The notes under the pieces were generated by a model. The model was not told the origin of the DNA. It saw only the letters and a program-made list of their open reading frames with translations, and did not search any database. Below, piece after piece: positions 6,215 to 53,100 of a stretch of 64,000 nucleotides of DNA (its first letter is position 1; the number at the start of each line of letters is the position of its first letter). Position numbers and translations under genes: made by a program. Location: the NCBI GenBank assembly GCA_000091205.1, contig AP006499.2; one strand, written 5' to 3'. Origin of the DNA: Cyanidioschyzon merolae (Eukaryota).

Positions 6215-9053
6215 AGCGGCTACGACGAAGCACAAGTTTTCTAGTTTTCGGAAGTAAGCACGTGGATATGGCGCTCCGAGTCTCTGGTGGTGATGTTCGT
6301 TTCAAACGAAAAATGCGGATGAAGATGGATGAAAAAGTGCATGCGCATGCACCGGTCTCTCGGTCGAGAGATCCGGCACCTGCCGCAGCTGCTCTGCCGG
6401 AGAAGCGCACGGCAGTGGTGGTGCTGGCGTCTCTGAAGCGAAACCAAATCAGCAGACGTGAACGGTATGTTGGGCATTGCGTGTCCTACCCAAAGCATGT
6501 GCAACACGTTGCTTGCAACGGAGACGCTACTGGGCCAGTTTTCTTACAGAAACGCTTCGCCGTCGAGCAATGGCCAGCGAATGTAACATTTTCCCTGAAT
6601 CGTTGCGGTTCGTTGAAAATTGCTTGGAAAATCGGTGATGACGGCTGCGGTGCACACGGAACTCCACACAGAAGCACCTGTTCATGTCGTGCCCCTTGGG
6701 GGATATAGCGTGCTCTGGGTCGGCTGAAGACCGGATTTCTACGGCCTGGTTGCTTCTCATCGGGGCTTTCGTCGGCGCACAAGGAACACAGTGGACGAGA
6801 CTTTTGGTACCAGCGTCGTTCACTTCGCTGAACCCTCGGGTCTCGATGCCCTCGCGCAGCGGCGGTACTGATTGACGACATCCATGAGACTGCAGCACGG
6901 ACACGAGGGTGCAATGTATCTCATATGAATACTCATCGGAACCGGTCTTGCATACCAATCTGATACTCATTTCAGAGTAAAAAATGAAATGGACACACTC
7001 ACATAAGTAGAGCGAACACGCTAAATTTTGGGCCTGTTACCACTTTCTGGAACACCAGTTTTGCGGGCTTTCTCTGTGACTGCTTCGTTTTTCGTCGCCC
7101 CAGTCTGAGGCGTTAAATATGCCAGTCTCTAGTGTTGCTCTAGCTTCGATACAAGCAGTCGAAAGATATTGATGACGGCATTCTAGTCCCGATTTGGCAG
7201 TTTCCGGCAGATGTCGAGGCATTTCATGCACAGGTGGAAATAGCGATCTACGCTCCGCTGGCTGTTGTCATCTCCCCAGCATGCAGCTTCAATGCGTCCT
7301 TGGAAGCGTCGACGCTAGGATGTGGTCAGGCATACCCACATGTCCATCGAACCTTCTCGTTTTCCGAGGTTCGGCCCTGTGGCTCGTGAAGGTCCATGTC
7401 ATCGCTCGGCGCTTGCCCTTGGCGGGTACGCAGAGCTCCCCTCGATGCAGTGCTTTGTTTCCGCGTTCCATGCCGTTCCCTGCGACCGTGGACTTTTGGA
7501 AGATCCCCCTGGCGAGTGCTCTGTTCGGCACATGCGGAAGCGCACGCTGTTGCATTCTACAGCGTTTCTTTTTTAAAGCGATTTTGTCGAAGATGAATCT
7601 AGTAGCGGGAGGAAGATCCTGGCCGGATTCGCAGTCGAGAAATCTCGATCTACCTACGTACCTGTCGTGCGAAGCGGTGACACACGCTTCACTGGGAGCG
7701 ATCGCCACGATAACTGAATTCCGAGGCCAACCTCCTTTTTCCATGCAAACAGAAGAGACGGGCGCCCCTTCGGACATATCTTGTGTGGACTACCATGTTA
7801 CTACCGTCGAATACCATGTCGTCGATGGCGAAAAACAGAGAATGTTTTTCTGCTGAACGGGATCGATTTTCTGACGGTGCGAATTTCAATGTGCTTTGGA
7901 TATGAGTTGGTCAACAGGTCCTCAATGGGCGAGGTCGAGCTCTGGACTTCGTCAATCCTGCAGTCCGAACGGATGTACCCAAGAAATCGGGTTGGAGCAA
8001 CATGATCGAAGACTTGAAGAATACGTGATTCTAGCATGCTAGGCGCAGGACAGAAACAAGAGCGGAGGCCTGTACGTGTGCACTGGATATTGGTGTTGGT
8101 GAATTTACGAATCCTTCTTCGAGAGCGTCTAAAATCATCTTGATTCCCGACACAACACGAATTCCACCTGCGATACATCGAATGATCCGCTCTTGAAAAA
8201 CGAGCTAGAATCCGAAACCTACACGTGAATCCGCACGCCGTTATTGCTGCACTTTTAATGTCGAGGCTGTACATCTAAAAGAATGTCCTGAAAGATCTCC
8301 AGGCGGGGACAGATCGCGTCGTTCAGACTTCGATTTGAATCTGACACGAGCGCACATTTGCTAGATATTGGTGTCAGAGATGGATCGTGGATATGTTTCA
8401 GGGCTCTGGGAGATTTTAACCCCAATGTACTCGATGAAAGGCTCTATTCTTTCTTTCAGGCCATGTACAGATGGTGTCTGGAATTCGGCATCGCAGCGAT
8501 TCGAAGTTCCGGTTCACGATAGGGCACGCTCAACAACTAGCGTCCGACGTTGCTAAGGTGAAGACGCCAAAATTACCATGCAAACTTCATGTCGGTGATG
8601 CGCGGAATTCGGGAGCGTTCGCCACGTTGGTTTATTTTGAGCGCAAAACAAAACTTGTGGCAAACACTATACATCTGTGCGTTGAGCCTGTCGACGGCGC
8701 TCTGTTCCGGGAGTCGGGCGTAATGTCAGCACTGGGCTGCAGTGCATCCGGATCCCTTGGTGAACAAAAAGGCATTGTCGGCGAATAGAGGTGAGAGGTG
8801 AAAATTGGCTGGTTCATGTCTTGCGCTTTGAAAATCAGGGCCCGATTCAAGTTCTCTACCACACACGTTCGATGTACATGCTTGCATCCTGATCACAATC
8901 AAATGACCTCTTAATCTATATCCAGTGGAAATTCACGTCTGCATCACAGCGAAAACCCCCCGAGTTTCCGCAGCGTCGCCCCTGCATTCGCCAAATAATA
9001 TTTTCAACGTCCAGTTCGCCAGGAGCGTTCCTCCTCTAACACGCGTGAGATAC

Positions 9054-9638: not shown

Positions 9639-9858
9639 GGAAAACGTAGCGAAAGGAGAACACAACTGAAGTCTGAATGGCAACGAAGTGGTAGACACGC
9701 AGGTGCCTCGCGTAACGAGTGCTGTCCAGGGGTTGCGTTGGCGCCGGTGTGCTCATGTCCATGAAGCGATTTGCTGGACGGTGTGCATGATTGTACTGTT
9801 ATGTACTGTAATACAAAGTTTGTACGGAATGCCGGCTTTACGCGCACTGGGGCTGCCT

Positions 9859-10112
9859 CGCGTGCCCTGATCGTGGCCCTTGGCATGCAGAAACTGTACA
9901 GAAACGGATTTTGCTGCCCAGACATGTCGCGTGCCCTGATCGTGGCCCTTGGCATGCAGAAACTGTACAGAAATTCCTTTTCCTGCCCAGACATGTCGCG
10001 TGCCCTGATCGTGGCCCTTGGCATGCAGAAACTGTACAGAAACGGATTTTCCTGCTCAGACATGTCGCATGCCCTCATCGTGGCCCTTGGCATGCAGAAA
10101 CTGTACAGAAAT
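9859..10112. repeat. 69-bp tandem minisatellite, ~3.7 units
   Basis: Unit cgcgtgccctgatcgtggcccttggcatgcagaaactgtacagaaacggattttgctgcccagacatgt starts at 9859, 9928, 9997 and 10066. It reads as RALIVALGMQKLYRNxFxCPDMS x4 in the ORF track, and sits in the divergent intergenic region between PRA1 (-) and the MBOAT gene (+). Confidence 0.9.
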
Positions 10113-16455: not shown

Positions 16456-17039
16456 GTCGGCATGGTGTTCACGTGGATACGCAGATGCTAGAGCATGGTG
16501 TGCACTGCGGGAACAGGTCATACTTGGAGGTGTCGACGCTTGCAATGCTAGGATCGTTGGTCGTCGCTGTCAATGAGCGATATCCGCGGGACTGCTTGGC
16601 TGGGCGATGTCACCAAGCTTTGATGAAAGTTTTTCCTCGAAGCGAAAATTTTTTATATAAATACACCGGATAAAACCCAAGTGGATCGTGTCTACAACGC
16701 TGCTGCTGGCGCAGACGAGGCAATGCTCTGGCATCAGAGGCCTTAGTATATGACAAGCAGCGGGAAGTAGCGCGGGTTTTCATGGGTACGCTTCACGCCG
16801 GTGGTATCACGAACGATCATCCCCGGCGTCTGTGGGAAGAGATGGATATGGCTGGGCGGCAGAGATGAGCTGCGCGTATCATGATACCCATGGCAGCGTA
16901 AAATGGAATGCCTCACGAGACCAAGTAGACCGTTCAGGTTCAAGTTTGGCGCTCGATCCGATTTCTTCTACAGAACCGTATCTGCCGGCTTTTTGAGTAA
17001 CTGCTTGTTTTTTCTCGTTAAATGCCGACTGCACCCACA

Positions 17040-17290
17040 CACACACCGGGCTCTTCTTTCGCTCCAGTTTCGGGGCGAAAAGTCGAAGGATGTGGATCGG
17101 AGCGTTCAAGTCCCGATTTAGCTACTTTTGGCCGTTGTTTACGCAAATCACACGCAGGTAGAAGCAGCTATCTCCGCTTCGCTTATCATTTCCATCTCGT
17201 TTGTCGACAGTCTCGACGCACTCCGCGCAGCGGTGACATGTAGCTGTTGGCATTGGGTCCTATACGTCTACGAGACCTGCTGCTACGTGC
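17040..17290 (-). mobile_element. TnpB/Fanzor-like relic, subfamily 2 (3'-terminal fragment)
   Basis: Minus-strand reading gives ...TCHRCAECVETVDKRDGNDKRSGDSCFYLRVICVNNGQK*LNRDLNA (CxxC zinc-ribbon remnant plus a RuvC-III-like NRDLNAxIN). The nucleotide sequence is homologous to 31920..32130 (agcgttcaagtcccgattt(a/c)gctactt, gcttcgctt(a/g)(t/c)catttccat..gtt.gtcgac, gcggtgacat). Confidence 0.5.
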
Positions 17291-18399
17291 ACTGCGCCGT
17301 CGCACCTGAACGTTTACTTGATCGAACGGTACATTCTCGTGATGAGTACAGAAGGTTAACCTCTGTGCCTTGCTCCGTTTTCGCGACAGGTGTCGTCAAC
17401 GACGACCACGGGCATCCAGCGGGCTATCCGTTCGGCGCGTACGCTGTCCGCAGCAGGTGCAAGCGCTCACCGTTCCATTCCATAGAGGACTTGAGGAGCG
17501 CGATGCTTTCCAGGATAAAGCAAGTACCTGAAGCAGAATCCAGGCTGAGGAACAAGTCGAGCATTTCGATTTGTCTACGCTCTCTTCCTGCAAAGCAGTG
17601 ATACGTTCGCCGCAAAAAGCGATCGCTGCGCTGACTCAACCCCGAGTTTAAGGTCCATTTCTATGCCAGTAGTAGAGACGACAGCCTCTAGGCGCATATA
17701 CAATGCGAGGTATCATGCTGCTGATGCATTGCATTTCTCTGATGCCTCTCAAGTGAGGGGGATGTTCGTTTCGAACGGAATCGATTGGTTGAAGTAAGAC
17801 GTTTGGTGAATGTTCCGGATGGTCTGGTGGATCATTCGTCAAGGAACGAAACGTCCGGTACGTTTCTTCGTCCGTGGAGCCGTGCGAAGGGCTTCGCCAA
17901 CGATTTCGCTTGAAACACGAAGATCGGGAGCTTGGAAGCCGCGTGCTTTCCGCATACTGTACATAAGGAAAGGAGAAGAGAGCAGGCCTTTGCGTTGGAA
18001 TTCGGTGGTGGTACCACTTATCTTACGTACCGTATTACGAGAGCCCCGCGAATAACGTTGAAGACGGTTGGATAACGAATCCAGTGGCAAAGCGTCGACG
18101 CAGCTACTTCGAAACCTGATTAAGAAACCTACACTACGATTGCATTCCAAAGCACTTATAGTCTCTCATCTCAAATTCGTTTTACCCCCCAGGTGCATGT
18201 CATCAAATTCATTTTCGTGGTTTATAGCAAATATGTTCGAAGTGCTCTCATTTGGAAGAAATAGAAAATCCATGGAAAGGGGCGGACCTGGAAGTCAAGG
18301 ATCCTGCAGGCTCGATGTCGCCGGGTTCAACAGCTTTTGGAAAAAAATCCTCTTCTTGGCAACCATAGAGCGAAGAAGAACAAGTGACGGAGAAGAACA

Positions 18400-18740
18400 A
18401 GAAGGGAGATAGGTGAGAAAATGTATTCGTCCGAAGTGACGATGACGAGACTTTAGTGTCACAGAAGACGCGAGTTCTAGGAATCCTCCTATCGCTGAGT
18501 TCAACCAACGGCAGGAAACGCATTGAGTTCGTGAACCGAGACTTTAATACCGCCATCAATATCAGACGATGTGTGGCGTTGGAGACGAGTCCCGAAGAAC
18601 CAAGGCAATGCAACTTCATGATGCAGCCTCTGACGCTCGTCGTACGACTGGATACACCGAGGCCGATAGCAGGCGGCCGGGGGAAAAAGACTGCGAAGCG
18701 TTTGCGGAACAGTATGTATACACTTACCGTTCAGGATCTT
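18400..18740 (+). mobile_element. TnpB/Fanzor-like relic, subfamily 1 (last ~35 codons plus conserved 3' non-coding module)
   Basis: The plus-strand ORF reads QKTRVLGILLSLSSTNGRKRIEFVNRDFNTAINIRRC (motif at 18528..18569). Downstream ~170 nt (gatagcaggcggccggggg..aaaaagactgcgaagcgtttgcgg..gtatgtatacacttacc) aligns with the 3' regions of the 21.5k, 36.6k and 46.1k copies. Confidence 0.55.
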
Positions 18741-20513
18741 AGGGCGTTGTCCGTTTTCACTCATCACATATTGCAGAGCGTGGTATTTCAAGCCTGCACA
18801 GCGATCAACATTTCGGCTAAAAATCGAAAGGCAAACATCGCGCGAGCTCCATGGTCCCCCAGTTTCGTCTCGTACGAGTGTAGACACGTCCTCTGGACTT
18901 GATGCAGAAGCAGCCGATATCGATAAGCGACACCTGTACAGCACTTGGAGCCTCACGTGTTCTGGTTGAAGCTGATCGTGCACATGTCCACGCATCTTGC
19001 TAGAGAAGGCATCATCGAATAGATTTTCACCGCATCCATACACCTGCTCAGATGATGCAGGTTCTCCATGAGCGTGCATCTGTGCTGCGCAGACACATCG
19101 CGTCTCGAAAAGAAACACAGGCGCTGCAATCAAGTGCGGATCTGAGGATTGCTGGACAACACGAATCGATGCAGGACCTCGGAGCCATTAGCTCGCAGTT
19201 CAGATTCGGGACCCAGCGACGGCTTGTACCGACATCGATTACCGAAAGATATGTGCATGGCGATAGCTAGACTCGGAAATGCAGGAGGAATCGGTATGTG
19301 ACGTTCTGGAGAACGACCTGAAGCGGAATCGAATCATACCAATGTCTGAAGAGACTCTTGTCGAACGGCGGTCCAGTATGACGTGTCACGGGTATGCAAG
19401 ATCATCACGTGATTGGTTTCTTGTGCAGATCCATTGAAAATATCGCATGGAGATGAAGAGCGAGCGTAAAGAGGCAGCCATGCATCAGTCGAGCGCAGGC
19501 CACGAGCGCTACCCTGGAAGGCCGGGTCGCCGACGCAGCACCACAAGCTGCACTCCACGCCTGGCAGCCATTCTATGCCAGTTGGTGCAACATCGCCAGC
19601 ATCCTGGCTCATGGGCAAAGTCTCGGTTGCATAGTGATGTCCAGGCGAGCCGGATTCGCTGATCGCCTCCAGCTGGCAGTACCAGACGCCGATGCGACGT
19701 GTAGCGCCCTGCATGGAAATGCCCAATCCATAGACATTTTGCGAGTCTCCAAATCGCACCGGGAAACATGTCCGCCGTTTAGGGTTCTGTATTTTTCATG
19801 GGGCGTGCCCAGTGTGTCGAACCTGAGCCCCCTGGACGTGTGATTCCTAACTGCGACCAGTAACGCATTCGCGGTTCGAATAGAGAGCTTTTGGGTTTTC
19901 ACAGAGCCCGGGCATGTGTCACACAGCCGGAAATGTGGTATGCATCCACTTTGCGACGTTCCAGGATCCAGAACATGCCATTGGCGCTTGCTGCGATGCA
20001 TTGCTCTGTAGCGCCACCGCGATCACTGTCCAGGGACAGCGCCGCTTTTCGGTGCTCCAATGGAGGCGTCGGCTCGAGGTAAATTCCTCTGTATTGGAAG
20101 CAAGCAGCGTAGATTCTGTGAAATGCCTCCATCGTGACGCTACGGCCGTTCAAGTGCGCTCCGCTCCTGACGCGAATCCCTATTCGGTATGCATCCGTGG
20201 ATTCCCAGTTGCGAATCGCGTCAGCTGCGGTTCCACTGCATCACACCTCTCAAAAAGTGATCGGGGTTTACGAATGGGCGTTTTTGGCCAGCGATAACAA
20301 GCTGTTGAGATTCATACGAATGCATCCCGTTCTTCAGTCCTGGGGCTCATAGTGAACATTCAGCGAGTGCCCGGTGCCAGGTACGGAAGCCAAGGACGGT
20401 CGAGTCGGCAACCAAACGCGCTGCTTTGAAGGATCCACTCGCCGAATGAATCGTCATCAAATCGCATTCCAGTTTTGATGTCGTTGCCGTCTGAGTCGAC
20501 GCTTTACGACCGA

Positions 20514-21603: not shown

Positions 21604-23315
21604 TCAACTTCTTCTCATATAATTCCACCTTGTGAAGTTCCCCATAAAATTCTCTCTCGTCAAGTACGCAAGTCTTCTTTCCATCACCGCCCTTCTCCTG
21701 ATATTGATAGCGGCATTAAAGTCGCGATTCACAAACTCCATCCATTTCTTGTTGCAGCTGGTAGCACTTTCCATTGCAAGTAGTCCTCGAAATTTAACCC
21801 TCCTTTCCATTTGCTCATCTGTCAGCGCTCCGTACTTTTATATATCTTCAGGACTCCGCTGGCACTTTTCCATTTCGACCCTCTGAAGTGTACACCCCAG
21901 TTCATGGTGTGTATGGGACGTTCGAAACTCATCTACAGGTATTGTAACAAAACGCCTTGCGCACTCCTTGTATGTTCTTGCCGTTGGAGCTGGTGTAGTC
22001 CCTTTTTGGGTCTTCCAGCGCCCTGCTCCGTACGCTACTAGGAGCCTCTGACTTTCATCCTCCTTCAAGGCACTCAACTGATTGAAAAAATTCGCGAATG
22101 CACGCTGCTTCCCACAATACAAACTCATTCGCAAACGAGCCCACCGGGGCTTGCTGTACTCCTCCCACAGCGCATCCCAATGGGCGATGCGAACTTCCAT
22201 GAATGTCCGAAAAGCGTTAAAGTCTGCTCGTCGGCTCGTCACCTCGCACAAAGATTCCAGGTGATCCTTCATTCCTGCATTCCATGTCTCGATTTTCTTC
22301 CTCGCATTCATTATACCAGATTCTCGATAGTATCTTGCTCTCGAGAACCTCAAAAGACGCTTGCCTTTCCGACGTAAGTGTCCGTCAGTACCATCTTCCG
22401 CGCGCTTGGGTACTGTGATGTTTATTATATTCGTGTTTGCGGGGTCCGCGCCACCGACAAAATCGTTGTTCTCATGCACTTCTTGCGTCGCAGGATCCGC
22501 CTCTTTGTTTTCTTCAAGCGCCGATAGTGTACGCATATGGATACGCCATTGGTTTCGATTATCCCAGTGAATACCTTTTGCTTGCTTACTTTGAGACGTT
22601 TGAAATCGAAGGTACTCTTCCAGTACGTCTCCCGATTTTCACCGATGAACTCTGTCTTCCTTACATTGAACTCCGGACAGATCTCCTTCATGATGCCGTA
22701 GAGGACTCTGGAGTCGATAGTCACAAAATTCGACTTGATGTGGCACAATGGAACTTCGTTGAAGTGCTTCTCCAGAACCGCAGCCTTCCGTTTCGCCCAC
22801 TTTTCATTTTTTTCCACACTCAGTTTGATCTCCGCTTTGCGTTCGACTTCTCGGTTCAAAAACATGACATAGTGCAGGATGAGGCGATAGCGTCTTTCTT
22901 CATCTTTTTTCATATCTAGTACCTCTTCTGCTCGATTCGCCAGCCCCAGTGCCGCACGATGCTCATGCATAACCGCACGGATCACAGAAGCCTCATTCTT
23001 TCTCCTGCGCGATGTCTTCTTGTTTACAAATTCGGTCTCCTGTTCGTTTTTACTAACGTTCGTGACGCCATCGATGATGGTCCATATCCCTTTGCGAGAC
23101 AGGTCCGGGCGGAGTGCGAACACGGCGCGTATCATGAAACGTTCGAGGTTCATCGTGAAATGATTCTTCATGTTCGTGAGGTACCTCATGGCCCCGTGGG
23201 TGTGCATATCCGCGTCACCCTTGTATCGAGTACCGTTGATGCTACAGAAGATATATTTTTCGTGGAGGGCGTGCACTAGCTCATTTTCACTCCGCATATC
23301 CCATGTGCCAAGCAT
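21604..23315 (-). pseudogene. TnpB/Fanzor-like (OrfB zinc-ribbon, RuvC-III) transposon-encoded nuclease gene, disrupted; plus conserved 3' module 21470..21603
   Basis: Three collinear minus-strand ORFs: 22425..23315 (296 aa, ...[22 protein letters not shown]...); 21838..22536 (232 aa, a different frame with a 112-nt overlap, ...LLVAYGAGRWKTQKG...FVTIPVDEFRTSHTHHELGC...CQRSPEDI*); and after a single in-frame stop, 21604..21810 (...KKWMEFVNRDFNAAINIRRR). VDEFRTS..C resembles the TnpB VDExYTSxxCxxCG zinc ribbon, and NRDFNAAINI resembles the RuvC-III DxNAAxNI motif. A possible N-terminal extension is ORF 23338..23532. Confidence 0.55.
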
Positions 23316-30708: not shown

Positions 30709-31919
30709 GGTTGCACCTCTGAATCTCAACGATACAAACGAAGGGCGTACAAGAACAGGTGTCAGCGCAGCGGTTTGCTCTAGCGCCTCCAAGCAGCAGC
30801 AGCACGTATGCGGTAACCGCTTCAACCAGCCAGCCAGCAACAAACAAACAAACACTCACGTGCGTTTACCGAAAAACGGTTTGGAGAATGGACGCATACG
30901 GTGCGCGCCGAGCGCTCTCTGTGTCAACAGCGGCAGTATACAGAAACACAGGAGAGCGTCAACCGGCGTTCAGCTTCAATGAACGATATCGCAGTACAGT
31001 GCCAGTGATGTGTCCGATAACATGGTGCTGGCTTGTGCATAGGGTCTCCACTTGACGTCTCCGCTCCTAAGCAGGTCTCGCGCAAAACGCACCGCCTAAC
31101 GTCGTCGAATGCTCTACATGGAGCGTCTGTGGAACAGCGATTCGTGGTGAGCGAAGAAGTGTCCATAGAAATCTGCATTTTGTCTGATAACGGTGCATGC
31201 AGTCTGGTCGTATGTGTGTTGATATAGGCTCCAATGCGTGCCTGAGGTCGTACGGGTAAATACGCGCTGGAAGCTGCGGACGGAATCCAGGTAGCGCTAT
31301 GACAATCGAAGGATCCGCTAGCGAGTGGTCGACGCTGACGGCTCGACGTAGTCGAATCACTGTGCAAGGGCACGGGGCGAGCCCAGGTCGAACTCGCTGA
31401 GACCCAACCAGCTGCGGATGAAAGAGGTGCTCCAAGGAACGCAGCATCAAGGTCAGCGATATGGCAGAAGCGGGAACGCACGCACACACAGTGTGGAACG
31501 AGTGCAGTGCACGATGGATCTGGTATTGCTGTCATCGCTTTTGGTACATGAGTATCACCTGTCGACCGAATGAAGTCCGTAGCGACAGCAAGTGGCGCCT
31601 GGGCGCGGGGAAGGTTGGGCGTTTTCCCGGAAGCGTCGCGAGTCCGCACGAAAGACCCGCTGGTCGACAGTGCACCGACGATAACTGCGTCGACTCGTCA
31701 TGCATGACATGAAGAGAACGACAGCCTCGGTGGTGTCCGTACAACTAGACTACTGCAGAGCGGTGATTTTTGCGGCACGCTAGTCGTACTCGTACGAGAA
31801 TAAAATGGTATGGGCCCAAGCCGAGCGTACACGTTCAAGTATCGGTCTCTTCCGAAGGTCATCAGCAGAAGCCGTTGCGAGCTTTTTCCTGTGACCGCTT
31901 CCTTGCGCTCTGTTCAAAT

Positions 31920-32130
31920 CGCCGGCTATCAATAGGTCTGGAGCTCCAGTCCCTCTGGATCCCTTACCAGCTGTCGAAGCATGTTGATGGAAGCGTTCAA
32001 GTCCCGATTTCGCTACTTCCGGCTGCTGTCAGAGCATGTCATGCATCGGCAAACGCTGCGACCTATGCTTCGCTTGCCATTTCCATGTTGTTTCTGTTCG
32101 ACTTCGATGTACGCGTCAAAGCGGTGACAT
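31920..32130 (-). mobile_element. TnpB/Fanzor-like relic, subfamily 2 (second copy)
   Basis: The minus strand reads RCHRFDAYIEVEQKQHGNGKRSIGRSVCRCMTCSDSSRK*RNRDLNASINMLRQ. The stop sits at the same codon position as in the 17.1k copy, and the nucleotides are homologous to 17040..17290. Confidence 0.5.
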
Positions 32131-33978
32131 CTGGTTATCTTGCGGTGTTCTCCTGTGTCCGCAACGCCGGCTTCACGGGGCTACTTCCTTGTGGTGCCTG
32201 AACGCTTACCTCATTGCCCGCTAGATGCGCTTGACGGATGCAGAGACGCTCGTCCATATCCGAATCCGTTTCTGCGCCCGGGGATGCAGCGCCCGATCAG
32301 ACGTGCTTTTCCAGGTTATCCACTTGGTGCGTAGTTGGTCCCCTGTATGCGTATGCGAACGTTGCGTCATCCGACAGAGGATTTGCGGATCGCGATATTG
32401 TCCATGATGAAACCAGTACCGCGTCCGAAATCGGAGCCCGACGATCAGCTCGTCACATTCCCATCGGTATACGCCCCGTCGTGCACAGCAGTGATGCTCT
32501 CGCTATCGCAAGCAGTCGCTGCGATGACTAGATTCCGAGTGAAAGATGCTATTCCAAGTCAACAGAAGAGAACAGAGACGATCGTGCATATCCCGTGAGA
32601 GGTATTGTGCTGGTGTCGGATGCCGTTTCGTCTAAGGTCACATGGAGAGGAGGATTTGTATTCCGCAGTTGTCGATTGCTTGACGTGACACGTTCATTGA
32701 ACTTTAAACAAGAACTTGTGAACAAGTGCTCTAGCGACGACATTGAGCTGTTTTCTTCATCGATCCAGTGGCACGAATAGCGGCGCCTGCGACTTGCCTT
32801 GGTTGATCAAAAACGTGCAGCATGCGCAAACCATACATGCAGCACGTAAGGAATTCAGAAGATCAAAGGCTTCTATCTATGAATTTGTTGATGATATCGA
32901 TTATTTTACGAAGCCTTTTTCGAAGGTGTCTCGATTCGCCCTGATGTTGAGTACGTAACGAGTCCATGCGGCAACGAGTCGACGCAGTCACTCCACAGAA
33001 ACAGCCGAGAATCTTAAAAGGACCTTTGAATCCGTTGTCTCTCTCTTTGCTACAGTTCGATTCTTAAACCTGAAAATCTACAATCATTTTGGAAAGAATC
33101 GCCAGGCTAAAGCAGCACGAGCAGATACGCATCCACCCGACGCCTTTGGTACTTGGGCGTTTGGACGCGCGTGCGCTGCGCTTCAGCAGGCGAGGGACCA
33201 GATCCGAGAGCACCAAGAGCGTTACGGTGCTAGGTGGCCCTGGCTGGTGCTCTTTAAAGTGACGCAGGTGTTCAGGGGGTTCATAGGCTCGTGCGAAACA
33301 CTCGAGTCCATAGGCGCGAGCAGCCGTGCTCCACTTGGTTGTGGACGACTGGTTGAACTTGGGCACCTGTGCCTTGGCTTTGCGCGGCAGAGAGGCTCGA
33401 TCTTTACGTCGACCCTGCACACGGAACCTCACATCGCTTGGAGCTGGGAGAGGCACGCGAAATCCTGTTTCGTGTAGCTGAGCGACTTTTTCGTCTTCTT
33501 AAGCGGTGTATGAACTTTTGGAAAACCTCGGCACCGGCGTAGGGGTACGACCTGGAAAGCGCGGCGTTATTTTGGAGGTGGAGGCGAAGGGCATCGAGCG
33601 GAGACGGCCCCGACTGAGGAGGCAACCGTGCACGCCCGGGCTTCTGTGTATCGGTGCAGCTGCTGCTTAGACGCCTTCTTGCTGACGGCTGATCTGCCTG
33701 TGGCACGGAGCTCGAGCTTCAGTGCGTAACACAGGCAGCGTCGGGTGCTCTCGTTGGCACGACTTGTCTGCGGACGCACGTAGTGCGTATTTTCTTGCAT
33801 CTCTCGGGACGAACCCGTATCTGTATTGCAGAACTGCAAAAGCTTGCTCCTGGAAACAGCGCTGTCTGTACTGCAGCAACAGATCACTCGGGTGGAGGCG
33901 TCTTTAGGTAGAGATCCAGCACTACTAGTGCGCACGCTGGGTGCACCGGAACCTTCTGCATCCTTCGAGCTGCACTCC

Positions 33979-36469: not shown

Positions 36470-36900
36470 CTTGCTTATGCATCTGTTGGATATGCGATCC
36501 GTAAAACAGAAAATGCGCCACGACCATGGCGGGTACGTTTCCATATACCCACGCGCAGACGCGTCCCAGCATTTTTGACTGGCTGCCTGCTATCGGTATC
36601 GGATTATCCAGGTAAACGTGGTGCTTGAGACGCTGCCCCACAAAGTTAGCTCGCGTTAGCTCCTTGGGTATCTCGTCAGTTGCACCGGAAATCGTCTGAT
36701 ACTGATATCGACGTTGAACTCTCGATTCACGAACTCCTTGCGTCCGTTGTCGCTGGTGGAACGCACCAGTGCAACGATCCCCGGAACGCGAGCCCTCTGG
36801 GTCACAACAGTCTCGTCGTCATCCCGTCGCGGAAACCCCGCGTCTCGTCTATCTTTCCTCTTTCTTTTGTCGTATGTTCTTCTGTGCTCGATGATTGACA
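36470..36900 (-). mobile_element. TnpB/Fanzor-like relic, subfamily 1
   Basis: The minus ORF 36656..36946 reads ...VVTQRARVPGIVALVRSTSDNGRKEFVNREFNVDISIRRF (motif 36692..36736), aligning residue-for-residue with the 18.5k and 46.2k copies. The downstream ~230 nt (gatagcaggcagccagtcaaaaatgctgggacgcgtctgcgcgtgggtatatggaaacgtacccgccatggtcgtgg) is conserved at the nucleotide level with 46.1k, 21.5k and 18.6k. Confidence 0.55.
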
Positions 36901-39900
36901 AACAGCGGATTTTTCCGGTTTTCCGGCATCTGGCGATCACGGGCATCTAGGATCCCCGACTTTTACGTCCATACCGTCCGCTTGGATTGTTTATTTCTTC
37001 AAAATGAACGCACTTTGAACGCGTCTGCTATAAACCACGAGAAAGCATTTGATTACAGGAACCCAGGAATAAAACACATTTGAGGCGAAAGACGACTAGG
37101 TGCACCGGTGCTTGTGATGCGTGTATGTTGTCCTTGACGTATGAAAGCGAATCATAGCACATCGTCTCCTGCACTCGTTGTGCGCTATCTTGGGCACAGC
37201 AGGAGTGCATTCTCGTGCGCGACAGCTCGTCCAGCGCCATCGTCAAGCACCAAATGATGCAGGTTATCAGTCAACAACGCTTCTGACTCATTGCACAAGT
37301 CGGTGAATGCACATTTCTTGCCTCCGTCCAATCGAGACGGGTCGGCAACCCCAGCGCGGTTACAGGCGTCTTTGACAAAAATCGTTCCCGTGATCCACTT
37401 GAACAGTCACGTTTTATCTAAATGAAGCGTACAGAGTCTCGCTGGCGGCTCGATACGGTTCTCAGAGTGTCGAGACTCGGCTGCTCACGCCGTGATTCCT
37501 CTTCCTGGCATGTCGCCTAGCATTCAGGATTCCCGACTGCAGATGATGTCGAGCCCCGGAGACGATGAGCAGCAGCATCTGCTTTTCGTTTTTGGCATCG
37601 GGTCCGTCCGTCCTTTAAATTTAGCAGTACGGAGACGCCCTTGGAGGTCTTCAATCCAGGATCCAAGTCCGTTGCCAAGTCTTTCTCTTCATCTACGTCG
37701 AGCGGATGAACATAAGAATCGTTGCCCGAATGGGACCTCGGTTTTCACCAAATGCATGCAGAGCGATGTGTGGTCGACCTCCATTGCCCCAGTACACTCG
37801 TTTTCATTTCCTCCCTGTGAACGTGAAACCTTGAACGAACTCCGTCACAATGTTCCTCATGAAGTTCTTCGAATGCTGCATGCCTGCTCGCGGAGACCAG
37901 ACGTAACGGACTGAGGTCGGCATGCAACGCAGTCCAGTCCAGAAGTATCTACGGGCACATGTACAGGAACACGGAGTTGGATACGGTTCCCCGATCGAAC
38001 GGAAACCTTGAGGAGGATTGAGTGCTCGGATCCGGGATGGCAGTCTGGTTTGCTGTCGAGGGCTCTGTTCAGGAAAATCCAGAAGCGAAAGATGCAACGA
38101 AGGTAGCGATGACGTACCCAGCGCCTTCTGGATACGACATCCCGCCGTCCGCAACCGTGTGCAGCACGACCAGCGTGAACGATCTGAAGCGAACCTCGTT
38201 CTCGTAGCGACACCTCTCCTGAACTCGCTACCACCCTTAGCGCTTCCGTCACCAGTTCGTCATTTGCATATAGCGAAAGACCAAGAATCCCTTACATCAG
38301 TCCCTGCTCCTCTGGGTCAGCTAGGTGATGGTATCAAGCCCATAGGTTGCATTTCACGAAGCGCTCGAGATGGACCCGTTGATGGATTTTCAGGTTCGTT
38401 AGATGCACTTTGTCACCTGTCCTCTGGACGTTCCGCTAGAAAACATGACAAGCCTGCGAGTCAACCTTTCATCCGAAACGCATTAGCAACTGTTTGATTC
38501 TGAGATCGAACCGTTTCGCATCTAATATCCTGGGGAATCGTTGTGTTGTTCCACGACAGCTAGATCAAACTTCCAAGCGAATGTGGTGAGCTTCCAGACC
38601 GGCTTCGCGACCTTGTACGAAGTTTGGCTTGACCAGGCGCGTCTAGACAAGGGAAGCAAGGCGGACCTTTCTCGAGTGAGAAGCTACTCGACCTCAAAAA
38701 GGGCTCTGCAATGCTCCATTCGAAAGATTCTCAACGCCGTATTGGTATGTTTGAATTTGGAGGCAATAAAATTGTTATCACAGTGAGCTTCTTGGTCCTA
38801 TGGTTTTCCGGTCTTGTGCCTTTTCGCCCTCTCTTCGGAATAATCTTTCTCTTCTATGGCTGGTGATGTCTTCTCTGTCTCTATTACTTGGCGGGATTGT
38901 AAAGCCCCTATGCTCTACATCCGTTCTTTCCCTCGTGACTCACATATGCGCTGGGTCCACGATAGGACTGAGACTCGTCTTTTCTAATTCCATTTCCAAA
39001 AGTTCTCAAGTACCTCCTCATCACCTTCTCCGTCGCAAGCAAGCCCGCGGACTGAAGGGCACCGTCCCGCTCGCTCCTGTACACGAGCACAGAAGCAGCA
39101 GAGCAGCCAGGGCCGGTGAAGATGCTCGAGAACGCATTGTCGAAGTGAGGTGTCACGGATCCGAACAACTCGTCTAATGATCCATGAATTGAAACATAGC
39201 GCTCGAAAAAACATAAAAGACGCTTTCGAACGGGTTGAAGCGGGGAGGCTAGGCTGGCATGAAGCGTTGGTCAAAGCCAGTCTCCACCGGATGCTTCTTG
39301 ACCGCTTTTGATTCATGGACATCGATGTTGTCTAACAGCAGCACCGAAGCATGCGGGATGGAGAATCCACAAAGCGTACGTCGACGAAGGATGCGGTTTC
39401 GAGCATTCCCTTCCGTTTGGCGATTCGTAGGTAACGAAACGATAGCATCGCAGCTATCGCTGGTGCTGTCGCCGTGCCCGGTTGTCGCTTCTTAACGAAA
39501 AGCGGATTACCCCGCTTTGTGAACCCATAAACAGGTCAGCAGCTTCCCGTGAATGAGTCTTGTTGAGTGAGACAAGCATACGTCCCTCCTGTACAACGCG
39601 GTCGTGTTTCAGTACGAAATCGATATGGTGTTGGTCAATGCGTAATGGTCTCCCAAAGGAGCGTGCTTTTTGCTTCGTCAATCTGTGTCATTTATCACTG
39701 TACGGATCAACGATTCGCAAACTCTACATCCTGTAGCTTATCAGATAGTAATTCTCAGAGTATGCATATGGTTTGGAATGCATGGACGAGGCGAAAATCG
39801 TGTGGATAGAGCTTGATAAGTGCTGCTTTGGGTCCACGACTTTCTACGAGAAGCGTGTTTCATCCATCCGTTGATCGTAGAATGGCTTTCTTGCACACCA

Positions 39901-46019: not shown

Positions 46020-46330
46020 GTCAGGAAAACGAACACTGTTCCACGGCCATGGAAGGTATCTATACACCCACGCACGGATGCCTGCCAGCCGTTTTGTTTC
46101 GACCGGCCGCCTGCGATCAGTTTTGTTTTATCAGGGGACAGTGCGAGCCTGAGAGACAGCCCAAGAAAGTCGGTTCTCATCAACAGCGCCTATCGTCGGA
46201 TATTGATAGTGGCATTGAAGTCCCGATTCACAAAGTCCATTCGTGCGGTTCCGCTGGTGGAACGCACGAGTACCAGGATTGCGAGAACTCTTGTCCTCAG
46301 TGCCGTTTAGTGCTCTGCTCGCTCTTCGTA
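46020..46330 (-). mobile_element. TnpB/Fanzor-like relic, subfamily 1
   Basis: The minus strand reads *TALRTRVLAILVLVRSTSGTARMDFVNRDFNATINIRR* (motif ~46198..46240; an upstream in-frame stop limits the coding part to ~45 aa). The downstream sequence (gatcgcaggcggccggtcgaaacaaaacggctggcaggcatccgtgcgtgggtgtatagataccttccatggccgtgg) is homologous to the 36.5k copy. It lies ~550 bp upstream of the MAPK start. Confidence 0.55.
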
Positions 46331-47648
46331 CTTTTTTATCGCCGAAGCGTTCGGCCGGCTTTGCTCCATCTCGACGTTCTCAAATGTTCAATACAGCGCA
46401 ACCTCTGCACTTCCTATTTTTGAAACTGAAAGCACTCTTTCTTATGCCATTGTTTGAAGACCTTGCCGGAGAGAGAGGCACGAGCGCAAGAAAGACGACA
46501 TATGTCCGAGTGTGTCGCCATGTGCTGAACGCTTCACCAATTCGCCCAGTGCAGCGATTATAACGTTTCACGATAGAAACCACGTCTTCGATTGGCATGA
46601 ACCAGGAAGCGTATGGAGGAATGATACGCGGCTCTACCCCTGATAGAATCGGAAACAGCTCGAATGCAAGGGGAATGTTATAACGCCACCTTATCTAGTA
46701 GAAGGACGTCGTCGGACGTCAGGGAGAGGTCTTCAGTGATTCGATAAAGTGATTTGTGCTGCAGTATGAGCCTTCTCTACGAGCGAGACTTAGGCTGGCA
46801 AATGAATCCACTGCAGATAGAACAGATGATGATGTCGTCGTTCCCTTTGAGCTCGATCTTGCATGCAACCGGTGTCCTGCTCCTCGAATACCCATACACG
46901 CTCCGTCTGTCTCGTTTGAAGCAAGTCACATCGACTGGAAAAAAACAAACCGATGTTCCTCTTCTTCATGTCGATCGCTGCGTTCCAGGAAAGCTGTGGC
47001 AGTTTCGATTTCGATGGAAGATGGCCGTGCGTGAACTAGGACTTTTTTGCGACTGTATATTCGTGTTTCCATGATTACACGAACGAGCTCTTGAGAAACA
47101 GAGACGCCCGCAGTAAATAGAATCGACGCTTTTGTTTTCCGTAAGGTGTTCAACGGGTCGTTTCTACACCATTGACCGCAAGAAGTCTTTCAGAGTATCG
47201 GCATTTGATGCGGAGCGCGTGTACTCTTTTCTATGAACATTCCTCAGTCATCAGGGTACTGTGCAACGACTGACCTGAAGGAGGAATGCCATCCTCCATG
47301 CACTGCTCAGTCAAGTATATATATCCTAAAGGCAATTCGTCTACGATCTATGCTGTACATTGCATCGATCTTTCGATCTCTCGCGCTGTACTGCGAAAAA
47401 AGCATTCGATCACATGCGGCGATGACGGAATAAAATAGAACTGAACGACCAGAAAAGGCACTTTTCACGCGACTCCGAACTAGCAGGTAAAGCGTGCCGG
47501 TACGCCTGCGCAGCCGATTGGCGCTCGAATTCCTTGCCGCTGCGCAGCACTGCGTCTGAGTAGGTCGTTGTGCTGCAAGGCTGCGGCCTTTCTCGAGGGT
47601 GTGCTGCAGAAACCGCCTTGACGGTGGCTAGGGGCGACAGGACCGTGT

Positions 47649-48596
47649 ATGTTCCTGAACGTTCAAGTCTGTGCCCGTTCGGTTACTCCCAAGCCGGCAG
47701 CGTCTCTCGCATTGCTCGTTTTGCAGTCTCAGCGAGGGCCTCTCCCTGCAGACGCCGCACGGTGTCGGCGTCAGTTTCCGACCTCGCAAACGAGGGTCTG
47801 TCGCTTGCGAATGGCCTCACCAGTGAAGAAGCTCAACTTGGAGGATCTTAGAACGAAACTCATACGTCAGGAGGAGACCATCATCTTCGCGCTGATAGAG
47901 AGAGCGCAATTCAAACACAACGCAGTAATCTACGAGAAAAATGGGCCGCTGTTTCGCATACCGGGCTTTACCGGCTCATTCCTCGACTATCTTCTGGTGG
48001 AGACTGAACGACTACACGCCAAAGTGCGGCGCTACACAGCCCCTGACGAGCACGCCTTCTTCCCAAACCAGTTACCGCAACCGATACTCCCGCCGTTGGA
48101 CTACGAGCAGGTGCTCCATCCGAACGACATCAATGTGAATCACAAAATCATGCAAGTCTACGTCCACGAGATCGTCAACCGCCTCACAGAAGAGGGCGAC
48201 GATCTCAACTATGGCTCATCCTGCGTGAATGATGTGGCCTGCCTACAGGCTTTGAGTAAGCGCATTCATTACGGAAAATTCGTAGCCGAGGCCAAGTACC
48301 AAGCCAATAAGGAACAGTATCAACCTCTAATCGAGCGACGCGATGCGGCCGCTATTGAGCAGCTGCTCACGGATCGGGCGGTTGAAGAGAAGCTGCTGCG
48401 ACGAATCGAGATGAAAGCCGCCACCTACGGCCGAGAGGTCGAGGTTGGTCAACTCCAACGATGGCGCACGGGATCGGATCGGTTTGGTGACGAGGTCCAG
48501 CAGTTTCCACACCTGTTAGCGAACATCTATGAACATTATGTCATACCGCTGACAAAAGAGGTTGAGGTTTTGTATATGCTGCAGCGATGGCCCTAG
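47649..48596 (+). CDS. chorismate mutase (eukaryotic AroQ type) with N-terminal extension (probable transit peptide)
   Basis: LNLEDLRTKLIRQEETIIFALIERAQF, YTAPDEHAFFPNQLP, VNHKIMQVYVHEIVNRLTEEGDD and RIHYGKFVAEAKYQAN match yeast/plant chorismate mutase. There is a true ATG at 47649. The first 54 aa are S/R/A-rich with no acidic residues before the MASPVKK core. Confidence 0.8.
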   Translation: MFLNVQVCARSVTPKPAASLALLVLQSQRGPLPADAARCRRQFPTSQTRVCRLRMASPVKKLNLEDLRTKLIRQEETIIFALIERAQFKHNAVIYEKNGPLFRIPGFTGSFLDYLLVETERLHAKVRRYTAPDEHAFFPNQLPQPILPPLDYEQVLHPNDINVNHKIMQVYVHEIVNRLTEEGDDLNYGSSCVNDVACLQALSKRIHYGKFVAEAKYQANKEQYQPLIERRDAAAIEQLLTDRAVEEKLLRRIEMKAATYGREVEVGQLQRWRTGSDRFGDEVQQFPHLLANIYEHYVIPLTKEVEVLYMLQRWP

Positions 48597-51113
48597 AGAC
48601 GTGACCGCACGGTATACCTGCACTTTCAGAACTGGGCATGTGCATGCGTCTTGACGACCCAGGGCGAGAAACTGCAACAACGACGCCAGATACAGCAGGC
48701 AGCAGCGGCTCGAGCGAGTGCGTCTCGCGATACCATTTGCGAAGCGACCGGCATGCTGGAACGACCACAAAGACGCGCGGGACGCAGCGTGATCGTACCT
48801 GTATCTATCGCTAGTGGTTGCAGCACTACGTAGCGAGATCCGATGCACTCATCGAGAACACGTCATCGTGGAGAGAAATGCGCACAGAGACTATCGCTGC
48901 ATCATTTTCGGGTGCAGCATTGCGACGCACCGAGGAAAACCGATCACGCGAGCATACCGTGAAGCGGGATAGATGTTTCCGCGAAGAAAAGTTTTTTCCA
49001 CAGTCTAAAATAGGGCCTTTTTGCATCATTCCTGGACGTTCAAATGGAAACACCAAGCATTGATTGCCCTTGACGTATTCGCCGGGCCAGATGGTTCCTG
49101 TTCCAGCTGCTCTGAGCATGAAGAATGCGGAACGTGCACGCTGCATTCCACGAGTTGCTGCGCCGCAGTAGCACGCGTTTGCGCGGTCCCGATTACAGTC
49201 CGCAAAGGTTCAGGTTTTTGGTTTCAAGCTGGCGACAGTTCGTATGTGCAGGAGGGATTGGGGATCCATCTAGACTGCCAATAGAAAAGCGCGAGTCGAA
49301 AGCAGCGTTCATGTACGGCGCTCAACTCTGCAGATCCGCTTTGCAAGGAAGCGATCGGACGGTTGCACGCGACGTCGCATGCGTTTCGATACACCCGCCT
49401 AACGCGTTACCGGGCAAGAGACACCACGGAAACCCGGCTAATATACACGATGTGTCGATAAAGACACATGCTTCATGCAGCCTGCTGGTCTGCTGGACTG
49501 CAACGCCGCCACCCGTGAAGTGTATTGAACGCGCGGAAGCGTCGAGGCAGCTGCATTGGAGCGGAGATCGAGACCCTGGGAACCGGCTCTGGAAGCGGAA
49601 ATTCCGGTTTACCCGTGTCAGAATAAAAAATAGAACGAGTCGCGTTCGCCAGCCGAGGCATACGTTCTAAAGTCTGGGACTCTTCGCATGAACGCCAGCG
49701 CCAGCCTCCACGGGATTTTTTTGCGTATGTTTTGTTTGCTTGTCTCGGAACTATAACTCTGTTTTCAGCTGCCAGGCGATGTGCACGGCGACGTAAATGT
49801 TCCTATTTCGTCGCTTTCGGGGGTTGTCGACGCATTTCATGCTCAGGTAAAAGTTGTAATCTCCGCTTTGCCAGCCATTTTCCTTCTCTTTAGATACAGG
49901 ATCGGTGTGCCCTGCGCAGCTGTGGCACTTGACTAACGGCACGTGCTCCGATACATTCAATGCATCTTCTCGCGAGAGCGCCGAACTCTGCCGCGTGAAC
50001 GCTTGCTTCTTCGCTCGGCACATGCCCTTGACAAGGACAGAACTTTCACCCTGATGCTGTTCTCCGCTTCTGCGCCCAGGATCGTACCATGCGATCAGGG
50101 GCTCCTTCAGGGAGCTCGCCCCGGAGAGCACGCCGGCTGCTCCTTATGCGAGCGCATGCAGTTCCATTCGAAAGAGAGTTTCTGAAAGGCGAGGCTCTCC
50201 GTGATGAAGCAAGTATTGTAAGGAAAAATCAGGCTGGAGATCGTCTCTAGAAATTCCGATCCGTCTGTGATCCCTCTTTGCGGAAAGCGTTGACGAAGTC
50301 TCCATCGGAAGCGATCGCCTCTGTGGCTCAAGTCCGAATCCAAGACTCTTTTCCATGAAAGAAGACACGGGAACTTCTGGGACCATACCTTGTGAATTGT
50401 ATCATGGTACAGTGGAGTCCCGTTTCACCAGTTACCATGACGAGAGGAGGATTTATCTCTCGAACGCAGTCTGTGATTCAGCGAGACAAGTTCAGTGAAT
50501 GTTCGGCATGAGATTGTGAACAATGCCCCCAAAGAGTGAAGTCGAGCAGTTTCCTCGTCAATCGAGCGGGCGAATGATTATGGTCACGAGATGTCCTGGA
50601 GCATGAAGATCGATAAGATAAGGCAAGCTTGATTTGTGTATTTTACATATAAGGGAAGGAGAAGGATGGATGCTTTTTCATATGCATTGGATAATACTGT
50701 CGGTTGTTTTACCAGTGCTTGTTCGAGCGCGTTACGAATCATCCCGATTCCGGTGACGCAACGAATGCCAGTGGCAGACAATATTGCAGGTGCCACTTCG
50801 AAACGACGACCGAGGATCCGAAAACTACCTATGGATCCGTAAGCGCATTGTGCTGCGCTTCGAACGCCTACCAAGCGCATCAAAAAAATTCGTACGGAAA
50901 TCGAAAACCAGGAAACGATTGCCCAGTTCACTTTACCACTTGAAGCTGACACCAACGTAGATGCATAGATCCAAAACTCTACGTCAACTCGCCGACGCCC
51001 CTAGAGCGATTGTGATCATCATCAGGTCGAGTGGTGCGCGATGTGCGCTCGCTTTTGCTAGAATGGCACCAGATGCATTCGGGGTGTACGGAACGCGAAC
51101 AAGACTGCTTTAT

Positions 51114-52766: not shown

Positions 52767-53100
52767 CACCCGATAGCGACGTGTTGCTCGCGTTGTACGC
52801 AGGTTACGCGTCACTCGTTGAACGCGAGTCTGTGGCAGCGCAACGAGTTCGGGGTCGAGGCGACCGCTAGCGTCTATGGAGTGCGTTCCTCGCGGCAGGT
52901 AGCTGTGGTATGAACAATGGTGACGGATACAGCTCCGAGCGTTGCCACTTCACCTGGCGTGTATACCAGCTTTATTTTTAGAACCTCATGGAAACGCGCC
53001 CAGTCATAGGCGTATGCAAGGCGTGCATGAGCGCCCGGACGGCAAACACTAGCGCGCAACGCTTTATATACCAAATTTCGTGCTAATTGTTGCGAGTCGC

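Follow-up and report, generated by a model that had tools for sequence, protein, structure and literature searches.

A shared in-frame stop codon in Fanzor-like relics of Cyanidioschyzon merolae is an incidental lesion in fossil copies of a non-autonomous DNA transposon

Introduction

Fanzor1-carrying elements of the Tc1/mariner type have been described in which a transposase gene and a Fanzor1 gene are located between inverted repeats (Bao & Jurka 2013, PMC3627910). For Cyanidioschyzon merolae, the same study listed a single Fanzor1 family of unknown classification, CMe-1A/TE-N2_CMe, an old family without inverted repeats, with ca. 150 copies of ~3 kb that are ~80% identical to their consensus (PMC3627910). 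Besides, the P-MITE survey reports MITEs in all but one of the 41 plant species that it covered, Cyanidioschyzon being the exception (PMC3964958).

Here, we analyze a stretch of 64 kb of C. merolae 10D nuclear DNA (the window), in which a first-pass annotation had pointed out two short segments of a second TnpB-like subfamily (subfamily 2), both interrupted by a stop at the same codon. Both are fossils of a non-autonomous DNA transposon of ~1.39 kb with terminal inverted repeats, which resembles the described Fanzor1 Tc1/mariner elements in combining a mariner-type transposase part and a Fanzor1 part between its repeats.

Results

Two homologous loci with a stop at the same codon

The two loci, named c17k and c32k, read on the minus strand ...TATCHRCAEC...SCFYLRVICVNNGQK-TAG-LNRDLNAPIHILR and ...TRCHRF...VCRCMTCSDSSRK-TAG-RNRDLNASINMLRQL, respectively. 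Translation confirmed the order claimed for both of them, i.e., a CxxC…C zinc ribbon, K, TAG, and (L/R)NRDLNA, and alignment confirmed that the two TAG triplets represent the homologous codon. Of the four cysteines of the zinc ribbon, each copy retains three. Chance cannot account for the similarity of the two loci (blastn E = 9e-14; nhmmer E = 0). However, the 75-80% identity reported earlier was an overestimate, as we measured 70.8% over the 161-nt blastn match (17082-17239 versus 31973-32130) and 56% over the whole element, with ~84% being reached nowhere but in a stretch of ~50 nt surrounding the RD motif. Neither is the homology confined to the segments of ~250 nt originally delimited, but it extends co-linearly over ~1.39 kb, with the 5' end of c17k displaced. 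The features of the two copies, all on the minus strand, are the following.

Copy c17k
16876-18265, minus strand: main body (nhmmer with the family HMM, positions 5-1387, E = 0; 30.6% of sites differ from the consensus)
18763-18877, minus strand: displaced true 5' end, with inverted repeat and leader (second nhmmer match, HMM positions 6-120)
17421-18189, minus strand: HTH and DDE_3 transposase relic, mapped from the alignment, ending in YAPNG*P (the YSPxxNP motif)
17636-17638, minus strand: TGA at transposase codon 184 (alignment)
17424-17426, minus strand: TAG, second stop in common with c32k (consensus TCG; alignment)
16939-17418, minus strand: Fanzor1 C-terminal relic, mapped from the alignment; consensus KKPVIVGYGTG...RNRDLNAAINIL...ERPAYL
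17314-17316, minus strand: TAA, third stop in common with c32k (consensus CAA; alignment)
17143-17238, minus strand: zinc-ribbon remnant, CHRC...(C->R)xxC, with three of four cysteines (translation versus consensus CHRC...CMKC)
17122-17124, minus strand: in-frame TAG; consensus CTG (Leu), Fanzor-part codon 98 (translation, alignment)
17101-17118, minus strand: NRDLNA, RuvC-III motif remnant (translation)

Copy c32k
31777-33150, minus strand: full-length copy (nhmmer, HMM positions 24-1388, E = 0; 28.1% of sites differ from the consensus)
32316-32318, minus strand: TAA opposite the c17k TAG at 17424-17426, in the YSPxxNP motif of the transposase part (alignment)
32206-32208, minus strand: TAA opposite the c17k TAA at 17314-17316, Fanzor-part codon 34 (alignment)
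32034-32129, minus strand: zinc-ribbon remnant, CHR(C->F)...CMTC (translation)
32013-32015, minus strand: in-frame TAG (translation, alignment)
31992-32009, minus strand: NRDLNA, RuvC-III motif remnant (translation)

In c17k, the body and the 5' end are parted by a ~610-nt fragment of the other Fanzor-like lineage of the window, subfamily 1 (18152-18771, plus strand; blastn match to 37103-36490). Approximately 100 nt at the 5' side of c17k align poorly because this fragment interrupts the copy. The insertion shows that subfamily 1 was still active once c17k was in place.

The location of c17k and c32k in the same orientation and only 15 kb apart would fit a segmental duplication of a chromosomal block. 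However, the flanks of the two copies are not homologous and their flanking genes differ, and at least 18 copies are dispersed over many contigs. Since the similarity stops at the inverted repeats, we consider a segmental duplication practically excluded.

A family of diverged copies

No Pfam match was obtained with the raw translations of c17k and c32k. A PDB sequence search with the c32k peptide and the C-terminus of subfamily 1 returned no meaningful match, and a protein database search with the raw c32k translation returned none at E <= 10. As raw translations matched nothing in Pfam, the PDB, or the protein collection, metagenome contigs were scanned at the nucleotide level with an 18-nt pattern located just downstream of the stop (AAATCGGGACTNGAAYGC). 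At least ~40 pattern loci were found on C. merolae-like contigs, corresponding to 14 distinct copies among the matches listed. Most of the additional copies were found with this pattern, and the sample is skewed to copies that are well kept beside the stop. An HMM built from the 14 distinct copies detected at least 18 distinct copies across all sequence examined and six in the window, where the other four are the following.

6954-8354, minus strand: copy c7k (family HMM); Leu codon CTG at the site of the shared stop, and a TAG two codons past RD
49601-50959, minus strand: copy c50k (family HMM); CGA at the codon in question
56433-57606, plus strand: copy c57k (family HMM), shortened by an internal deletion of ~265 nt; CCG at the site of the shared stop
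59750-60913, plus strand: copy c60k (family HMM), with the same internal deletion as c57k

Copies c57k and c60k are 95.6% identical over 1072 nt within the element, and the summed lengths of the six copies amount to about 13% of the window. In an alignment of 15 copies, conservation is restricted to ~1.35 kb, and the divergence of individual copies from the majority consensus amounts to 24-31% of sites. Pairs of copies are 54-62% identical, and their tree has the shape of a star.

Intact relatives and coding content of the consensus

A protein search with the 15-copy consensus retrieved intact relatives on metagenome contigs, only 28-35% identical. Among these, P0005 and P0006 are transposases of 306-307 aa beginning with MYSLD, with HTH_Tnp_Tc3_2 and DDE_3 domains, while P0007 is a Fanzor protein of 704 aa ending in ...FKLRNRDLNAAINIL...EDRPVYL. 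On the contig encoding P0005, a DDE_3 gene is followed in tandem and on the same strand by a gene for a 636-aa PF07282 protein, and on contig L127 a DDE_3 gene is followed in the same manner by P0007. The intact relatives are, hence, two-gene units composed of a 307-aa transposase and a 636-704-aa Fanzor. A search for terminal inverted repeats on L127 gave no convincing pair. With respect to an autonomous partner with the same ends as subfamily 2, the consensus protein search yielded only decayed copies and these distant intact relatives from other sources; no such partner was found in C. merolae sequence.

The consensus restores coding sequence that is absent from any single copy. Its transposase frame (MYSLDIRS...FVAIDETAF...FIMDNIAFHKSS...RTAYSPRGSP) matches DDE_3 (PF13358) with 39.9 bits against a cut-off of 28.6 (E = 4.9e-10), together with a weak winged-helix match. 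Residues 1-257 of the consensus align to residues 1-252 of the 307 residues of P0005 (31% identity, E = 6e-26). This alignment breaks off at YSPDYNP, directly ahead of the IE with the third catalytic residue, and the Pfam match ends at position 117 of the 146 of the profile; the catalytic triad is incomplete. The second frame (KKPVIVGYGTGRG...HLTTAKCHRCEG...CMKCVDNSRKLRNRDLNAAINILRLL...ERPAYL) contains a C4 zinc ribbon and the RuvC-III RD motif and matches PF07282 (Cas12f1-like TNB domain) with 30.5 bits against a gathering cut-off of 26.3 (E = 4.2e-7), while consensus residues 254-385 align to residues 561-692 of P0007 (E = 2e-16). The proposal that the C-terminal segment comes from a TnpB/Fanzor gene is, thus, well founded. 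On the other hand, the element is not a nuclease alone, as the first-pass annotation had it: the Fanzor part comprises only the last ~140 codons, and the upstream part, which makes up three-fifths of the element, derives from a DDE transposase and had been missed.

The transposase and Fanzor parts are joined out of frame. The ~560 N-terminal Fanzor residues, which should include RuvC-I, and the RuvC-II region were found in no copy examined. The ends consist of terminal inverted repeats of ~28 bp, CACCC(A/G)TGTCAGA(A/T)TAAAATGGAAC, the 5' consensus and the reverse-complemented 3' consensus agreeing over ~26 nt. From inspection of the alignment by eye, the dinucleotide TA follows the 3' end in about four of the nine copies that are cleanly readable, whereas the 5' side is too decayed.

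A dead derivative copied in trans

The junction of the deletion is identical in all 15 aligned copies, and it removes the catalytic end of the transposase and about 560 of the about 700 Fanzor codons. Because all copies share this junction, we infer that the subfamily-2 element was copied in trans; the junction being out of frame, with the catalytic end and most Fanzor codons lost, its spread would have needed a transposase supplied from elsewhere. Besides, seven of 14 copies carry a TGA at transposase codon 184, which was probably already present in the master copy. The earlier suggestion of a dead progenitor that still proliferated is, therefore, supported by the common junction and by this TGA, but not by the shared TAG on which it had been based.

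Based on the intact relatives and the consensus, we propose that the ancestor was a two-gene element of the Tc1/mariner/IS630 type with terminal inverted repeats of ~28 bp, which would have encoded a ~307-aa HTH and DDE_3 transposase and, downstream of it and in the same orientation, a Fanzor1 (the eukaryotic TnpB) of ~640-700 aa. A single internal deletion would then have fused Fanzor codon ~560, out of frame, to codon ~257 of the transposase, with the break inside the YSPxxNP motif and just ahead of the catalytic Glu. This would have left both ends, a crippled transposase gene, and the zinc ribbon and RuvC-III tail of the nuclease. The dead derivative may subsequently have been multiplied by transposase provided in trans, with every copy decaying neutrally thereafter to its present distance from the consensus.

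Neutral decay of the copies

Divergence at the first, second, and third codon positions is nearly equal, both in the transposase part (0.253/0.259/0.262) and in the Fanzor part (0.271/0.261/0.267). Between strains, comparing the window with orthologous contigs, 1.01% of subfamily-2 positions differ, compared with 0.89% in other intergenic DNA, 1.26% in subfamily 1, and 0.37% in ORFs. Considering the equal divergence across codon positions and the intergenic-like rate of change between strains, the subfamily-2 copies decay neutrally, and no selection is visible. This answers the question of neutral decay versus purifying selection posed in the first-pass annotation. The ancestral frame contains 4-13 stops per copy (nine in c17k, 13 in c32k), and each copy has roughly ten indel runs (about 13-14 in c17k and c32k).

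The ancestral state of the shared stop

In the 18 copies listed, the codon in question is CTG (four copies), CCG (four), CGG (two), TAG (two), TTG, CTC, CAC, CCA, CAA, or CGA (one each), that is, a sense codon in 16, with TAG occurring only in c17k and c32k. The intact relatives read K-L/I-R-N-R-D at this site (KLRNRDLNAAINIL in P0007 and KIRNRDLNAAINIL in P0002). From the sense codons in 16 of 18 copies and the Leu or Ile of the intact relatives, it follows that the ancestral codon was Leu (CTG). Copies lacking the stop, which the first-pass annotation had recommended looking for, are accordingly the rule, and TAG is not ancestral. A role of the TAG as the 3' splice site of an intron was also considered and dropped, because the frame runs across the site in the intact homologues and in the 16 other copies.

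Two copies with the same lesion may nevertheless share some history. Three stop positions are common to c17k and c32k, resulting from the changes TCG to TAG or TAA, CAA to TAA, and CTG to TAG. In simulations of independent decay, three or more shared stops arose in this pair in 3% of trials (P about 0.03), and the CTG to TAG change, which requires two substitutions, never occurred in both copies in 4000 simulations. The two-step TAG in both copies, together with the three shared stops, makes it likely that c17k and c32k have some history in common or have exchanged sequence, although the genome-wide measures of similarity show none. Over the whole element, the two copies resemble each other no more than they resemble the rest, and they are not sisters: their 56% identity lies within the range of all pairs, they rank 12/105 in shared derived sites, and they rank 18/91 in exclusively shared derived sites (z = 0.9).

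One way to account for the shared stops is that c17k and c32k descend from a source copy in which the TAG and the two further stops were already present, so that the lesion was inherited in a sub-lineage. In addition to the simulations, this is consistent with a C-to-G change private to the two copies, located 10 nt from the shared TAA in Fanzor-part codon 34, and with the TTG of copy L074 as a possible intermediate. However, the ordinary similarity of the pair over the element argues against it, as do the occurrence of three shared stops in another, unrelated pair (L028/L108) and the different codons, TAG and TAA, at the second shared stop. We, therefore, regard descent from such a source copy as a tentative explanation that is rather unlikely to be the right one. 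The TAG may also have arisen in both copies by parallel mutation, or it may have been transferred through a short gene-conversion tract, although the derived sites common to c17k and c32k are scattered and not clustered. Irrespective of its route, the shared TAG is an incidental lesion without functional meaning.

No indication of TAG recoding

If the TAG were read through or recoded, by a variant code or a suppressor tRNA, the copies could still encode a working nuclease domain. TAG is, indeed, involved in two of the three stop positions common to c17k and c32k, and the single tRNA of the window, at 53100-53187, was labeled 'tRNA-Stop (tta)' by ARAGORN. This tRNA is the sole match within the window in Rfam at gathering thresholds. 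It was rejected as a suppressor, since the Rfam alignment and the loop CUGUUAA, read by eye, identify it as a tRNA-Asn(GUU) whose anticodon loop is followed by a short intron; no cognate suppressor tRNA was found in the window. The host genes of the window are long ORFs in the standard code, and two of its ORFs are identical to the C. merolae 10D proteins BAM82107.1 (plastid sigma factor) and BAM82104.1 (MAP kinase). Recoding of TAG would, moreover, have to contend with the presence of this triplet at the site in only two of the 18 listed copies, with ancestral frames that are interrupted by stops of all three kinds and by the indel runs mentioned above, and with the absence from every copy of the N-terminal Fanzor codons in which the RuvC-I site is expected. 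We give this explanation essentially no weight, and there is no pointer to any unusual decoding of TAG.

Conservation at the RNA level

The guide RNAs of TnpB/Fanzor systems overlap the gene at its 3' end. The deletion derivative keeps exactly this overlapping part, and the conserved block might be maintained at the RNA level, for example as a Fanzor guide RNA (omega RNA) spanning the 3' part of the gene and the element's right end. The last 280 nt of the inferred ancestor also fold modestly better than shuffled sequences (z = -2.4; 3 of 200 as good). However, RNAalifold found no consensus base pair when applied to the 290 nt at the 3' end of 14 copies, and Rfam gave no family match for the elements. 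Along the element, identity to the consensus varies little (0.67-0.80), with a small peak at the 18-nt retrieval pattern, and from strain to strain the copies change at the rate of other intergenic DNA. No Pfam match was obtained for the alternative frame, which runs open past the TAG, and the RD frame is that of the intact proteins. The other reading frame or RNA-level conservation considered in the first-pass annotation, thus, found no backing, and maintenance as an RNA is very improbable. Compensatory changes noticed by eye in a hairpin within the 3' inverted repeat were likewise discarded, having no RNAalifold support.

A related idea is that the 1.39-kb elements were once guide-RNA-bearing satellites, with their spread or retention relying on a Fanzor nuclease acting in trans and not only on the DDE transposase. 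It comes to mind because the deletion kept the guide-RNA-encoding Fanzor part and the right inverted repeat. We consider it speculative and improbable; if true, such guide-RNA satellites would be a eukaryotic counterpart of guide-only TnpB satellites.

Subfamily 1, a second Fanzor lineage

The C-terminal half of subfamily 1 (FVNRDFNAAINIRR) is co-linear with residues 461-674 of P0007 (E = 2e-4), and its RD region matches the subfamily-2 consensus, while a Pfam search with its raw sequence reached PF07282 at only E = 0.038. The P0007 alignment identifies subfamily 1 as a distant Fanzor relative and agrees with the claim that two lineages of one nuclease family coexist in the window. Subfamily 1 also sits downstream of DDE_3 relics, as follows.

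39192-39681, minus strand: DDE_3 relic, upstream of the following Fanzor relic
36671-38405, minus strand: Fanzor relic
46527-47360, minus strand: DDE_3 relic, MYSIDRRR...PPYASWFMPIE
46160-46387: Fanzor C-terminal fragment directly after the relic at 46527-47360

A near-match to the inverted-repeat motif at 47423-47441 (plus strand) led only to a host ORF at 47649-48596, which by eye resembles a chorismate mutase.

Discussion

Considering all these results, we are confident that c17k and c32k are neutrally decaying relics of a deletion-derived mariner–Fanzor non-autonomous transposon, in which the TAG replaces a Leu codon and has no decoding or regulatory meaning. This removes a false lead, as the shared stop is not a sign of recoding, of an RNA gene, or of a working nuclease. 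It also calls for caution in annotation, since what looks like a nuclease motif belongs to the tail end of a chimera, the rest of which becomes visible only through the family consensus. Subfamily 2 is an ordinary fossil transposon of a kind already described. To judge by the published description of CMe-1A, from which it differs, it is possibly a family not previously reported for C. merolae, and at most an uncatalogued one.

The closest known systems are the Fanzor1-carrying Tc1/mariner elements (PMC3627910), the two-gene layout of which is also found in the contig of P0005 and in L127. The C-terminal half of their Fanzor signature, [TS][TS]-x-x-C4 zinc finger-x(5,50)-RD, is recognizable in the subfamily-2 consensus as TTAK-CHRC...CMKC-x9-RD. 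In contrast to these elements, subfamily 2 is only a deletion derivative, with ~140 Fanzor codons and without the third catalytic residue, and its TA target duplication is only suggestive.

Based on the published descriptions, the ~3-kb copy of subfamily 1 at 36.6-39.7 kb would correspond to CMe-1A. Subfamily 2 differs from CMe-1A in being more diverged (~72% identical to its consensus) and 1.39 kb long, with clear inverted repeats and a transposase relic. Because both Fanzor1 lineages of the window adjoin DDE_3 relics of the IS630/Tc1-mariner type, our results suggest this superfamily for the elements that were left unclassified by Bao & Jurka 2013 (PMC3627910).

Subfamily 2 also resembles the MITE-like derivatives produced by internal deletion (e.g., Ds/Ac), in which the ends are kept, one deletion has destroyed the coding capacity, and amplification depends on a transposase acting in trans, and its copies form a similar star-like burst. 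It is larger than typical MITEs, and the consensus protein search did not recover an autonomous partner. With bacterial TnpB (IS200/IS605, IS607) and the Cas12f TNB domain (PF07282), it shares the zinc ribbon followed by the RuvC-III RD(x)NA(A/S)xNI motif. On the other hand, it differs from bacterial TnpB in lacking RuvC-I, the N-terminal Fanzor region, a Y1 or serine recombinase, and subterminal hairpin ends; it is bounded by inverted repeats and associated with a DDE enzyme.

A probably inherited stop codon and possible gene conversion in subfamily 2

In the non-autonomous subfamily-2 relics, a TGA occupies transposase codon 184 in 7 of the 14 copies, namely at 17636-17638 in the copy c17k and at the homologous codon in six others. 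It is this stop that does look like a heritage of the master copy. Two other copies, c57k and c60k, are neighbours:

56439-57510 and 59756-60821, (+): near-identical subfamily-2 pair, 3.3 kb apart, with a host gene in between

These two copies are 95.6% identical, whereas other subfamily-2 pairs reach only about 56%, and they have in common an internal deletion of about 265 nt. The high identity extends from the 5' inverted repeat to about 96 nt short of the 3' end, while the last ~96 nt are similar at the family level only. Besides, the orthologue of c57k in another strain (L004) is 98.3% identical to c60k of the window. This identity pattern, together with the closeness of the L004 orthologue to c60k, suggests gene conversion between the neighbouring copies.

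Other features of the window

53100-53187, (+): tRNA-Asn(GUU)
9858-10111: tandem repeat, 69-nt unit x3.7, 93% matches, adjoining the MBOAT gene
62157-62384: tandem repeat, 109-nt unit x2.1, 77% matches

ARAGORN labelled the tRNA gene 'tRNA-Stop, anticodon tta'. This label was rejected as a tool artefact, since the alignment in Rfam, together with the loop sequence CUGUUAA, identifies tRNA-Asn(GUU) with an intron of ~11-12 nt after the anticodon loop. Such an artefact could misdirect hunts for suppressor tRNAs.

Subfamily-1 genes and relics

The second and distant Fanzor1 lineage, subfamily 1, is represented by an almost intact gene and by relics accompanied by transposase relics:

21610-23315, (-): Fanzor1 gene, almost intact, consisting of a 296-aa and a 232-aa ORF
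36671-39681 and 46160-47360, (-): Fanzor relics with DDE_3 transposase relics upstream on the same strand

The two ORFs of the gene share the stretch 22425-22536, an overlap that implies a single frameshift; the gene also contains one TAA (21838-21840), and the G+C content around it is locally lower (48% at 22-24 kb). The position of the DDE_3 relics ahead of the Fanzor relics on the same strand suggests that these elements, published as unclassified, would belong to the Tc1/mariner/IS630 class. In the 46-47 kb copy, the transposase relic is full-length but decayed (MYSIDRRR...PPYASWFMPIE) and is directly followed by the Fanzor C-terminus only; this copy is a second deletion derivative of independent origin. 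A near-match to the subfamily-2 inverted-repeat core (three mismatches) was observed at 47423-47441 (+). The start codon of this transposase relic is 63 nt away, but the match is in inverted orientation; it may be a solo end or what is left of an adjoining element.

Comparison with relatives and published elements

L129-L132, contigs of another eukaryote: P0002, 610 aa, adjoining the RNA polymerase II Rpb2 gene
18152-18771, (+): subfamily-1 fragment, ~610 nt, inserted in the 5' region of c17k in opposite orientation

The Fanzor relative P0002 is an intact 610-aa ORF with the same sequence in several samples. Its Fanzor content is the C-terminal third only (KRPVIIGYGTGRGNGGGHKGEP...KIRNRDLNAAINILKLL), whose zinc ribbon carries a long insertion; the N-terminus of the protein is of low complexity (GQGQGQ, AAAAAAAA, HAQHAQ). 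P0002 could be either a truncated relic open by chance or a domesticated fragment. The insert in c17k corresponds to the 3' part of subfamily 1, including FVNRDFNTAINIRR, and is of a size reminiscent of the 635-bp TE-N2_CMe (Bao & Jurka 2013, PMC3627910).
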